Below, piece after piece: positions 15,001 through 18,000 of a stretch of 64,000 nucleotides of DNA. The position numbers were made by a program. Source of the DNA: Escherichia coli (GTDB lineage: Bacteria > Pseudomonadota > Gammaproteobacteria > Enterobacterales > Enterobacteriaceae); assembly GCF_044324875.1 (NCBI RefSeq), contig NZ_CP172185.1; one strand, given 5' to 3'. The stretch's first letter is position 1, and every line of letters begins with the position of its first letter.

Positions 15001-18000
15001 GACGTTCAACAGCATCTCTTGACCATAAGCCGGATTCAATCAATGCACTGCACGCCATCGCCCGGAATCCATGGCCACAGACTTCCTTGGTTGTGTCATA
15101 CCCCATCACTCTGAGGGCCTTATTTACGGTATTTTCACTGATTGGTTTACGCGGGTCATGTGCTCCCGTAAAGATCAGACCATTTTCACCAGCCCATGTC
15201 TGAAGTTCTGTCAGTATGGCTACAGCCTGTTTGCTGAGTGGCACAAGATGTGGTGTTCGCATCTTGGAGCCCCGGTGTGAGAATTTTACCCCTGGCAGAG
15301 GTTTGCGTTCGGCTGGAATAGTCCACATTGAATTGTCAATATCAATTTCAGCCCAGCGGGCATATCTGAGTTCACTGGAGCGAATAAAAACCAGTAAATT
15401 CAGCATAACAGCAAGCCGGGTGACAGGCTGACCTTTATAACTGTTAATACGCGACAGAAGTTCAGGCAGACGTGAAAGATCAAGAGCGGGGCGATGCTGT
15501 CGTTTTACAGAGGTCAATGCGCCAGCCATATCCAGAGCAGGATTATATCTGATGATGCCAGACTGTACGGCATAACGCATTACAGCAGATATTCTTTGCT
15601 GCAGACGACTGGCGATTTCATAAATTTGTTTAGCTTCTGCAGCACGAACAGGGATAAGCAGGTCCGGGGTATTGAGTGTTGTGATGTTCCGGTTGCCGAT
15701 AAAGGGGAAAACGTGTGTTTCGAGGCTTTTGAGTACCTTATCGCTGTGTGATTGTGCCCATTGTTTATTACTGGCATGCCAGCGTCGTGCAATATGTTCA
15801 AAAGAGAGCTGTAAATCAGGGACTACTTTTTTAGCTCTTTTCTGTTCGCAAGGGTCAACCCCCTCCGAAATCAGTTTTCGGGCCTCATCCCGTTTTGTAC
15901 GAGCTTCGGAGAGAGAAACTTCTGGATACACACCAAGTGCCAGAGTCTTCTCCTTACCCAGAATACGATAACGGAGACGCCAGTAACGGGAACCATTAGG
16001 ATGTACCAGCAGGAACATGCCAGCCCCGTCAGTGAGTTTATAAGCCTTGTCAGTGGGCTTTGCAGCCCGGATTTTTGCGTCAGTCAGTGCCATAGTTCAG
16101 CCTTCTGAATGCGTTAAAGAGGGTACAAATTCTGTCGAACTGGGGTATACCCGCAATTATACCCACACAATGGGGTTGATGTGGGGGGAGTCTGGTTGAG
16201 TTCGGTAGAATTGATTTGGCGGCAGGACGCTTAAATCGTGGCGTCCTGAAACGAAAAACGGACCTCCGTGGAGGTCCGTTTATATGAATTTGGTGCCCGG
16301 ACTCGGAATAAAACCTGATGTATAATCAATTGTTTTATATTGGTTATTTGTGTTTGTTTTTTTCAGGGGCCACCAATAAGGCCCCCTTGCGCAGTTCGAA
16401 TTCTTTTGATGCTGTTTTTCCCCTTTTTTCTGTCTTCCTCCACCATTTCGTTTGATTCGATGTGCTGTATTACGGAATCGAATCAGAATCAGAGGGCGGC
16501 TGTTTAGAAATTACTAGGGCACCTGTCAGAGAGACCGTTAACACTATGAGGTCAGAAATGATCTGATAGTTTGTTATCTGTATCTTCCAGCACCCTGTTG
16601 ATATCCCGGGAGCCATGTACGATACGTTCGATACGAACTTCAGTATCCAGAACTCTGAACAGCAGAAGATAACGACCATACGAACAACCTCTGATCCCGG
16701 GTCCCAGCTCTCTCCTTTCTCTGTAGAGTTCTGGAGATTCTGCGATTAACAGACATTGCTGGTAAAGTTCTTCAGTAAAACTGATTGCGCGGACAGGATT
16801 ATCCTGAGCGATCCAGTCACCAATGGCCTCAAGATCGTTTTCTGCTAATGGTGAGACAGTCAGTTTCATATTGACTGTTCACCTGCTGCTATCTTTTTGT
16901 ATTTGTTTGTCAGTCTCCCGAACACCTCTTCAGCACTTTTACTTTCACCGCTGTTAATACCTGCGGTAACGGCGTTACGAAGTGATTCAAGCTTTATCTT
17001 CTGTTCCTGCTCTTCCAGGGCCCGAAGTCCGGCGCGAATAACTTCACTTGTATTGTTATATCGTCCACTTTCTATCTGTTCGCGGATAAACGTTTCAAAG
17101 TAAGGGCTGAGGGATACACTGGTAGGCATGATGATTTCTCACTGATTAAGTACTATCAGTTAATAATAATTAATATTAGTGAGTTGTAAAATCCCCTTTA
17201 TGCCTGGCTGCTTTTGCTTACGATGTCCGCCCGGAATTCTGGATAACGTTTCGCCAGAACAGCATTCAGCTTCTCCACCAGTTCCGGGTGTTTAAACGTG
17301 ATATGCGCGGAGCCCTTCCTGAAGTATCTGATGCTGAACATCTCATCCTCATAGCACGCTTCACCCTGAACAGAACGGATGTGTTCATCCAGACGAATGA
17401 GGATATTGTCCCTGCAATCGGGTATGGGTTTACCACTGAACAGATACAGTATCCTTTCCAGGTCGGCAAGCCGCACGGCCTGCGGACCATGGTTCAGACC
17501 AAATCCCCACCAGTCCCATTTCACCAGGTTGTTGAGGATAATCTTGCTGCCGAATTTACAGGGTGACCCGCTGTTTTGCGTCCGGCTCAGCCCCCTGAAG
17601 AGGTTGATGACGCCCCGTTCAGCCATTTCATCCCTGTTACGGTGCAGTTGTTCAGACGTGCTCAGGATATTCGCTTCGCTGATTTCCGGGAAATTATCCT
17701 CCTCCAGTGAACGGTACCATTCATCACGCGCCTGTGCATCCATCAGACTCAGCATCCCGGAGCGTTGCATCAGGTCACGCCAGATTTCCCGGTCAAGATT
17801 CCGGGTGATGGCTTTCATTGCGGTTTCCGGTTTTTCCATCAGCCAGCAGCCACAGCGAAAATCCTGTTTCACGGCCCAGTCCCGGGCCGTTTTACCTCCG
17901 ATGCTTTCTGTCATTACTGAGATTTCTGCCAGTTGCCGGATAAGCCTTTCGGTTTGTTGCAGTGCTTCATTCCGTACCGTCACAACGTGCCGGATACTGG

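Follow-up and report, generated by a model that had tools for sequence, protein, structure and literature searches.

The 64,000-nt window of Escherichia coli DNA analysed here (contig NZ_CP172185.1) carries an ordinary, intact parD-parE pair beside the att repeat of a pheV-type genomic island, which the pair probably helps to persist. ParDE modules on mobile elements are textbook material, and this pair is already annotated by RefSeq (NCBI pipeline); the mildly new point is that the slot it occupies holds, in other strains, an AbiE toxin-antitoxin (TA) pair. We favour, with moderate confidence, the interpretation of the locus as a functional, autoregulated type II ParDE operon, forming a cassette of ~750 bp at the att-proximal end of the island.

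The preliminary description had claimed an intact parD-parE pair with a 4-bp overlap at 16552-17129, and this is borne out by the reading frames. Two minus-strand ORFs with ATG starts lie at exactly these coordinates, namely, parD (16866-17129; 87 aa) and parE (16552-16869; 105 aa), and the four bases common to both (16866-16869) read ATGA on the minus strand, so that the parE start overlaps the parD stop codon. A Shine-Dalgarno-like motif for parE, AGGTGA, is located inside parD (16884-16879). The layout is that of type II TA systems, with antitoxin and toxin genes adjacent in this order on one strand, in overlapping frames and thereby translationally coupled, and the same arrangement is found in the homologues from MIN9, Salmonella and Pantoea. 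Both proteins score above the cut-offs of their families, and the Pfam and NCBIfam matches of the pair are far beyond chance. ParD matches Pfam ParD_antitoxin (PF03693; E = 2.6e-18, 66.7 bits against a cut-off of 21) and the NCBIfam ParD family TIGR02606 (98.3 bits; cut-off 46.2), as well as the sequences of solved structures, including V. cholerae ParD2 (7b22/7r5a; 4.5e-12), C. crescentus ParD1 (3kxe; 4.9e-11) and M. tuberculosis ParD1 (8c24). As judged from these scores, which exceed the curated cut-offs, it belongs to the ribbon-helix-helix antitoxins of the ParD family (CC2985/TIGR02606 type). Comparison of the window and MIN9 alleles, both from E. coli, yielded dN/dS of 0.09 for parE and 0.11 for parD (dS of 0.47 and 0.39). 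Given that dN/dS is about 0.1 at a dS of about 0.4 between two E. coli alleles, both genes are under purifying selection, which fits functional genes. A decayed pseudogene pair is ruled out by these ratios together with the intactness of the pair in 471 genomes.

The 68-bp gap upstream of parD (17130-17197, minus strand) is the probable promoter and putative operator region of the pair. The promoter scan of 16100-17400 yielded a single parDE promoter-like site, with a -35 TTTACA (17190-17185) and a -10 TATTAT (17168-17163) that together match 10 of 12 positions. This site overlaps a conserved, palindromic 16-nt block, TTATTAACTGATAGTA (17166-17151), which in four diverged loci (the window, MIN9, a Salmonella IncF plasmid and a Pantoea megaplasmid) is identical bar one C/T position (TTATTAAyTGATAGTA), whereas the flanks diverge. 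Two inverted repeats (I2 and I10) lie in the same gap, namely, ACTGAT/ATCAGT at 17160-17155/17146-17141 and CTCACTAAT/ATCAGTGAG at 17183-17175/17146-17138. The conserved block is likely to be the ParD operator. No known antisense or cis-regulatory RNA was detected at the parDE locus (Rfam, 16050-17400, E<=1); across the whole window, the sole Rfam match at gathering thresholds is an IS3-type ALIL frameshift pseudoknot (33631-33747).

The location of the pair between the DUF4942 gene and the att repeat, also part of the preliminary description, holds as well. The upstream neighbour of parD, on the same strand, is the DUF4942 gene (17198-18064/18142; PF13708, E = 2.8e-59), the last gene of a conserved CP4-44-like 'yee' module; an identical gene is annotated by RefSeq in LH50-c, the closest genome, and its product also matches a PHROG DNA-methyltransferase family (1.2e-16). 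An IS has cost the other TA system of this island end, cbtA/cbeA, its toxin in the window, so that ParDE is the only intact TA pair seen at this end. A three-component system of the PaaR2 type was considered and ruled out: the sole upstream gene is that for DUF4942, which is found in yee modules with or without ParDE.

On the other side, 243 bp from the parE stop codon, lies a 19-bp fragment of the tRNA-Phe 3' end, ATTCCGAGTCCGGGCACCA (16291-16309, minus strand), present once in the window against 0.01 copies expected by chance; no second copy was found in the window, even with three mismatches allowed, and the window contains no complete tRNA gene. The other island end, therefore, lies outside the window. 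Strain AR_0085 carries the sequence from 16291 to the right at 100% identity, bordered on the left by unrelated DNA, and since homology ends exactly at 16291, the repeat marks a true island boundary. Together with a spacer of ~170 bp, it constitutes an att-proximal arm (16291-16482, minus strand), which contains a conserved GC hairpin at about 16362-16385. An attR of the type TTTTATTCCGAGTCCGGGCACCA has been given for SMS-3-5 (PMC11537424). The 242-nt spacer between parE and the repeat folds no better than shuffled sequences (z = -0.38) and forms local hairpins only, and, in the terminator scan, no intrinsic terminator was revealed between parDE and the repeat. The sequence beyond the repeat (16094-16290, minus strand), as indicated by genome matches and the terminator scan, normally lies just downstream of an intact tRNA-Phe gene, but here follows the 19-bp fragment only: 5416 genomes have a match to the 210 bp at 16100-16309 beside annotated tRNA-Phe genes, the match in K-12 covers 16177-16309, and a terminator hairpin is predicted at 16281-16256.

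The same pair had been placed at the extreme end of the island, and this stands in part: the boundary is real locally, as AR_0085 demonstrates, but the pheV island is a composite and the repeat forms one of its internal junctions. At 197 bp beyond the repeat starts a second island, the next in the tandem array, which carries an intact P4-type tyrosine integrase of 421 aa (14828-16093, minus strand; annotated by RefSeq, with Arm-DNA-bind_3, Phage_int_M and Phage_integrase domains). This enzyme lies outside the ParDE module, yet no other recombinase that might act on the repeat is closer. The parDE pair itself sits inside the element bounded by the att repeat, the pheV end of which is outside the window and can be seen in LH50-c. 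In that genome, pheV is about 99 kb from the repeat and has an intact recombinase beside it, plus an integrase fragment, and the intervening segment contains several genes or gene fragments for integrases, as well as IS elements and a Mu-like prophage.

The att-proximal arm is found in 1136 of the 5426 complete E. coli genomes. The ParDE pair is present in 472 of the 5426 (8.7%), with both genes intact and annotated in 471, and in 667 other genomes, the same slot holds an AbiEii/AbiEi-like (AbiEii/DUF6088) pair; 472 and 667 add up to about the number of genomes carrying the arm. All 12 sampled island ends had a TA pair in the slot by the arm, with no empty slot among them. Alignments of ParDE-type with AbiE-type ends lose homology at about 16483 and about 17230, and the exchangeable cassette so delimited (16483-17230, minus strand) consists of parE with its 3' flank, parD, the promoter and the final ~12 codons of the DUF4942 gene. 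The cassette boundaries were inspected for short repeats as a sign of site-specific insertion; they share just the hexamer CGGAAT, probably by chance. A further reading, to which we assign a fairly low probability, would be that the att-proximal end of such pheV-type islands has a dedicated, always-occupied TA slot, bordered by DUF4942 and the conserved att arm of 190 bp, in which two unrelated cassettes, ParDE at about 0.75 kb and AbiEi/AbiEii at about 1.4 kb, would replace each other via recombination in the flanks. If so, there would be selection for some TA system right at the excision junction, and the slot could either protect the island end from being lost or partly deleted or be a two-allele defence hotspot.

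A defence role or a purely selfish one is a live alternative to addiction. Under the former, ParDE would be an abortive-infection cassette, and the slot in which it lies a small defence hotspot, with phage infection triggering arrest, as for AbiE; we regard this as unlikely, albeit worth serious consideration. Two-state exchange of cassettes between conserved flanks is typical of defence hotspots, and in the 667 genomes with AbiEii/DUF6088, the slot is the same, the arms being 92.7% identical. The presence of AbiE as the alternative occupant points at least as much to phage defence as to addiction, AbiE being described as an abortive-infection TA system confined to a few E. coli hotspots (PMC10121019). 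However, neither ParE nor ParD, nor DUF4942, matches any PADLOC-DB v2 model at E<=0.01, our literature search recovered no report of this ParDE clade defending against phages, and the AbiEii gene of E. coli 83972 is itself frameshifted.

Under the purely selfish alternative, to which we assign a rather low probability, ParDE would be a hitch-hiker that is hard to lose and moves between island ends by homologous recombination in the flanks, without measurable benefit to the island or the host. Such mobility would be compatible with the patchy distribution of the pair in 8.7% of genomes, with the presence of the cassette in two arm lineages that share only 76% identity, one of these lineages carrying either ParDE or AbiE, and with the occurrence of close relatives in unrelated contexts, on Pantoea megaplasmids and a Salmonella IncF plasmid. 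Nevertheless, this scenario is hard to tell from addiction, given that a selfish cassette, through its own addictiveness, automatically stabilizes the linked DNA. Moreover, the apparent absence of empty slots (0/12 sampled) suggests that loss of the TA system from the slot is counter-selected.

The toxin is closer to the ParE branch than to the RelE/YoeB/HigB/YafQ mRNA interferases, in both sequence and predicted structure. ParE matches Pfam ParE_toxin (PF05016; E = 1.6e-19, 70.7 bits against a cut-off of 23) over 86 of the 89 profile positions, and all eight PDB sequence matches at E<0.01 are ParE toxins. In a Foldseek search of the PDB with the AlphaFold model (pLDDT 87), ranks 1-22 are all of the ParE type (TM 0.69-0.80; 19 of these at 0.74-0.80 and three P. 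aeruginosa ParDE chains at 0.69-0.70). Within the HGSRDI motif, H85, R88 and D89 are invariant in 28 homologues. That the toxin would be a RelE-like, ribosome-dependent mRNA interferase instead of a gyrase poison, as might be supposed from the breadth of PF05016, which spans the whole RelE/ParE superfamily, from a sub-threshold match to NCBIfam RelE_StbE (24.3 bits; cut-off 27.9) and from the RefSeq product name 'RelE/ParE family toxin', is highly improbable and was rejected on the PDB sequence matches, which include no RelE, YoeB, HigB or YafQ chain even at E<=10, and on the Foldseek ranking, where RelE, YafQ, YoeB and HigB structures fall below all 22 ParE-type matches (TM about 0.44-0.60), while its partner is an antitoxin of the ParD and not the RelB type. 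The ParE2 toxin of E. coli O157 has been reported not to inhibit gyrase (PMC8706911), so the target of ParE cannot be read from family membership alone.

By analogy with RK2 ParDE, C. crescentus ParDE1 and V. cholerae ParDE2, the ParD dimer would bind the operator via its N-terminal ribbon-helix-helix and wrap ParE with its C-terminal part, whereas free ParE would poison DNA gyrase, causing DNA breaks and growth arrest. The segment could be lost through integrase-mediated excision between pheV and the repeat at 16291-16309, or through deletion; in the resulting segment-free cell, synthesis of the labile ParD would cease while the stable ParE persists, so that the cell would be killed or arrested. 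Island-free segregants would thereby be counter-selected, as the position of the pair suggests and as precedents for element-stabilizing TA systems imply, including ParESO/CopASO in CP4So, SgiAT in SGI1 and HipAB in CGI48 (PMC8706911, PMC8978831, PMC5006074). MosAT and HipAB-GI21 are further addiction modules of integrative elements in this comparison class. A role of ParDE in island addiction or persistence, as originally proposed for this pair, thus seems plausible by analogy. Clean excision, though, may be rare or impossible, because the ~99-kb segment between pheV and the repeat is riddled with IS, the Mu-like prophage and integrase fragments. Furthermore, in related islands with a yee module, for example that at selC in PapRG-04-4, the end is formed by DUF4942 without a TA system, indicating that a terminal TA is not required for persistence. 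Our literature search, in which subscription journals were thinly covered and which thus provides a weak negative, found no experimental study of this ParDE or of a TA system at a pheV island end.

Taken alone, the finding matters little, but it provides context for the pheV pathogenicity and fitness islands, the stability of which affects virulence-gene carriage in ExPEC, APEC and STEC. A comparison of pheV islands (PMC11537424) discusses stability via direct repeats, and the term 'toxin-antitoxin' is absent from its text. Should island loss indeed be counter-selected by the terminal TA slot (ParDE in 472 genomes, AbiE in 667), the slot would be a simple contributor to island persistence and would offer a handle for the experimental curing of such islands.

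Among known systems, the solved chromosomal ParDEs, namely, those of M. opportunistum (6X0A, 5CEG), C. crescentus (ParDE1; 3KXE), V. cholerae (ParDE2; 7R5A/7B22) and M. tuberculosis (ParDE1; 8C24), belong to the same domain families and have the same antitoxin-then-toxin order. ParE of the window is 38% identical to M. opportunistum 6X0A over 88-90 aligned residues (TM 0.77-0.79), and ParD aligns with VcParD2 and CcParD1 over its N-terminal ~62 residues. Unlike these systems, the window pair is part of a separate Enterobacterales clade, with 60-90% identity among its members, for which the literature search found no biochemistry, and it is situated at the att-proximal end of a tRNA-Phe island. 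The family archetype, parDE of RK2/RP4, performs post-segregational stabilization of its carrier replicon, but is plasmid-borne, and its ParE inhibits gyrase (Jiang et al., 2002, as cited in PMC8706911). RK2/RP4 parDE is absent from the tblastn plasmid matches at >=60% identity, which comprise a Salmonella IncF plasmid and Pantoea megaplasmids only, and the relationship, therefore, is at the family level only.

The PaaR2-PaaA2-ParE2 system of E. coli O157:H7 (5CW7) includes a ParE-fold toxin (TM 0.77, 26% identity to the window ParE) on horizontally acquired E. coli DNA, but consists of three components, its regulator being separate and its antitoxin, PaaA2, unrelated, whereas the window contains no third gene and its antitoxin is ParD. 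The AbiEi/AbiEii pair (type IV TA), for example in E. coli 83972, is likewise a two-gene antitoxin-toxin operon, with exactly the location and orientation of parDE between the att arm and DUF4942, but its proteins, a nucleotidyltransferase toxin and a DUF6088 antitoxin, are unrelated to ParDE, and its documented role is phage defence, as opposed to addiction or the poisoning of gyrase. ParESO/CopASO of CP4So resembles the window pair in that a ParE-family toxin resides on a CP4-type integrative element, and differs from it in the CopA-type instead of ParD-type antitoxin, in the host and the element, and in that the target of ParESO is itself unproven. Whereas for the window pair such functions are proposed from sequence and precedent, ParESO/CopASO is reported to be autoregulated through inverted repeats in its promoter and, in a 2018 study, to experimentally maintain its element after excision (both as cited in PMC8706911).

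A toxin-antitoxin (TA) pair is encoded on the minus strand near the island end by two ORFs, parD (16866-17129; 87 aa) and parE (16552-16869; 105 aa). The preliminary description had placed an overlapping ParDE pair here, between the DUF4942 gene and the att repeat, and it holds on each of these points: the parD stop and the parE start share the 4 bp ATGA (16866-16869), the DUF4942 gene (17198-18064; E=2.8e-59) is the upstream neighbour of parD, and the parE stop codon and the tRNA-Phe repeat are 243 bp apart. An AGGTGA motif, read from the sequence, is located within parD, 9 nt 5' of the parE ATG. 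Family identity is supported by scores over the cut-offs for both products, namely, Pfam ParD_antitoxin (66.7 bits; cut-off 21) and NCBIfam TIGR02606 (98.3 bits; cut-off 46.2) for the antitoxin, and Pfam ParE_toxin (70.7 bits; cut-off 23) for the toxin. RefSeq already carries a PGAP annotation of both genes.

The 68-bp gap between the DUF4942 gene and parD contains the sole promoter-like site detected by a promoter scan across 16100-17400 (TTTACA and TATTAT separated by 16 nt; 17190-17163, minus strand), and this site is flanked by inverted repeats. When the parD upstream regions of the window, E. coli MIN9, a Salmonella IncF plasmid and a Pantoea megaplasmid were aligned, the block TTATTAAyTGATAGTA (17166-17151) proved to be the same in all four loci save for one C/T position, with diverging flanks. 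In both plasmid loci, the alignment shows a near-perfect palindrome of 21 bp, the right half of which is this block. Overlapping the -10 element, it looks as a ParD operator would and is a putative operator.

The window allele is rare, being found at ≥99% identity in only two genomes, and shares 86-89% DNA identity with the common E. coli allele represented by MIN9. The corresponding protein identities are 96/105 and 79/87, with dS of 0.47 and 0.39 and dN/dS of 0.09 and 0.11, whereas the non-coding DNA directly 3' of parE is merely about 51% alignable between the two strains. Thus, both parD and parE are under purifying selection. Overall, parDE is present in 472 of the 5426 complete E. coli genomes, chromosomal in every case, and close relatives (60-85% protein identity) are spread across Enterobacterales on chromosomes and large plasmids. 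The closest plasmid homologue, on the Salmonella IncF plasmid pCFSAN006171_1 (L008, 1029-2806; 75% ParE identity), lies directly 3' of genes for a XerC-like tyrosine recombinase and a toprim-domain protein, so that a recombinase is again a neighbour.

The att repeat, ATTCCGAGTCCGGGCACCA, corresponds to the 3' end of tRNA-Phe (16291-16309, minus strand) and occurs once in the window, against 0.01 copies expected by chance. From 16291 to the right, E. coli AR_0085 matches the window at 100% identity through the arm, parE, parD, DUF4942 and the adjoining module; to the left of the repeat it is unrelated, with an IS110 fragment and then the genes of the kps capsule cluster in that position. The 19-bp repeat is therefore a genuine island boundary; an attR of the form TTTTATTCCGAGTCCGGGCACCA is listed for GI-pheV of strain SMS-3-5 (PMC11537424). 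The DNA to the left (16094-16290) is that normally found downstream of an intact tRNA-Phe gene, terminator included; it matches beside an annotated tRNA-Phe in 5416 genomes, the K-12 match spanning 16177-16309. Further left come an intact P4-type integrase (14828-16093) and a TPR protein. Given this combination, the repeat is the junction of two tandem islands, and the ParDE island entered a tRNA-Phe gene already backed by an older integrase island. In LH50-c, to which the window is nearly identical apart from additional IS insertions, about 99 kb separates the repeat from the pheV gene on its right, which neighbours yqgA and speC. This interval contains an intact recombinase and an integrase fragment, together with an RM system, a Mu-like prophage and numerous IS elements. 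Hence, the earlier placement of the pair at the extreme island end is right for its immediate surroundings, but on a larger scale the site lies within a composite pheV island exceeding 115 kb, whose ability to excise is uncertain. Sets of PEA-transferase, TPR and integrase genes recur along the composite islands of LH50-c and MIN9, and the adjoining island in the window encodes a PhoX alkaline phosphatase and a 500-aa EptA/Sulfatase-type phosphoethanolamine transferase (7458-9437 and 11668-13170).

To the right of parDE lies a conserved CP4-44-like 'yee' module, the same as in LH50-c, comprising genes for DUF4942, DUF957, DUF5983, CbtA, CbeA, DUF987, RadC, an antirestriction protein, DUF932 and a GTPase. 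The cbtA toxin gene (22222-22635) is cut at Pfam profile position 83/112 by an IS21-family element (20328-22281; IstA, 340 aa, and IstB, 260 aa), whereas the cbeA antitoxin gene (22577-23050) is intact. The CbtA/CbeA pair is therefore disabled, leaving ParDE as the sole intact TA pair seen at the island end. The DUF4942 protein has a match (1.2e-16) to a PHROG family with a DNA methyltransferase annotation. A 1.33-kb IS3-family element (18116-19445; ORFs 18161-18571 and 18529-19434), absent from LH50-c and presumably IS2-like, has inserted roughly 50 bp before the start of the DUF4942 gene and separates DUF4942-parDE from the upstream yee-module genes. The sole Rfam match in the window is an ALIL pseudoknot, an IS3-family frameshift signal (33631-33747; 116 bits). 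Three 100%-identical copies of a 2.6-kb IS (606-3246, 29134-31774 and 62792-64000, the third ending at the window edge) are potential substrates for large island deletions or inversions.

The ~190-bp arm at the att-proximal end (16291-16482) is present in 1136 genomes. It includes a GC-rich hairpin, GGGGCC-N8-GGCCCC (16362-16385), kept in both arm lineages; on the plus strand a T-run precedes it and on the minus strand an A-run follows, so it is no canonical terminator on either. In E. coli 83972 (L007, 3480-5110), parDE is replaced, in the slot bounded by this arm and DUF4942, by genes for an AbiEii nucleotidyltransferase toxin, frameshifted in this strain, and a DUF6088 antitoxin-like protein; the two end types cease to be homologous at about 16483 and about 17230. 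The AbiE cassette was found in 667 genomes, and the sum of the two cassettes (472 + 667 = 1139) is near the number of arm-bearing genomes. In an evenly spaced sample queried with a chimeric arm-plus-module sequence, all 12 ends with both anchors were occupied (5 ParDE, 7 AbiE and none empty). The MIN9 arm, although followed by ParDE, is closer to the AbiE-type arm of 83972 (92.7% identity) than to that of the window (76.2%), indicating that the cassette was exchanged independently of the arm lineage. The last ~12 codons of DUF4942 vary among ParDE-type, AbiE-type and TA-less ends; the related selC island of PapRG-04-4 lacks the arm and ends with DUF4942, without a TA pair. This two-state slot, apparently never empty, is a modest addition and merits a systematic census.

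Phage defence is the main rival explanation for the ParDE cassette, suggested by its sharing a slot with AbiE and by the confinement of AbiEii to a few E. coli hotspots (PMC10121019); however, PADLOC models matched neither ParD nor ParE, and we found no literature report of phage defence by this ParDE clade. A third reading, that ParDE is a purely selfish cassette, is in practice hard to tell from addiction.

Because PF05016 takes in the entire RelE/ParE superfamily and the RefSeq name is 'RelE/ParE family toxin', the branch was checked. All eight solved chains matched by sequence at E<0.01 are ParE toxins (6X0A, 7YCS, 5CEG, 8C24, 5CW7/5CZF, 3KXE and 7R5A), and no RelE, YoeB, HigB or YafQ chain appeared among the PDB sequence matches even at E≤10. 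With an AlphaFold model of ParE (28 input homologues; mean pLDDT 87), Foldseek against the PDB returned ParE-type toxins at ranks 1-22 (TM 0.69-0.80), followed by RelE, YafQ, YoeB and HigB (TM about 0.44-0.60), so that a RelE-like activity is unlikely. ParD matches the solved antitoxins ParD2 of V. cholerae (4.5e-12) and ParD1 of C. crescentus (4.9e-11), and H85, R88 and D89 of the C-terminal HGSRDI motif of ParE are invariant among homologues. The ParDE assignment is sound. Family membership points to gyrase as a putative molecular target, with the caution that ParE2 of E. coli O157 does not inhibit gyrase (PMC8706911).

The best-supported interpretation remains that the pair may constitute an autoregulated addiction module for linked DNA: the operon would repress its own expression and addict the cell to the DNA with which it is linked. 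Our search of the literature, of which the searchable part is incomplete, found no experimental work on this ParDE clade, nor on any TA slot located at the end of the pheV island. Both the ParDE family and TA-mediated stabilization of integrative elements are well established. As precedents, ParESO/CopASO maintains CP4So, a prophage of the CP4 type, once it has excised (PMC8706911), HipAB stabilizes a composite island (PMC8978831) and SgiAT provides a further case of addiction in SGI1 (PMC5006074).
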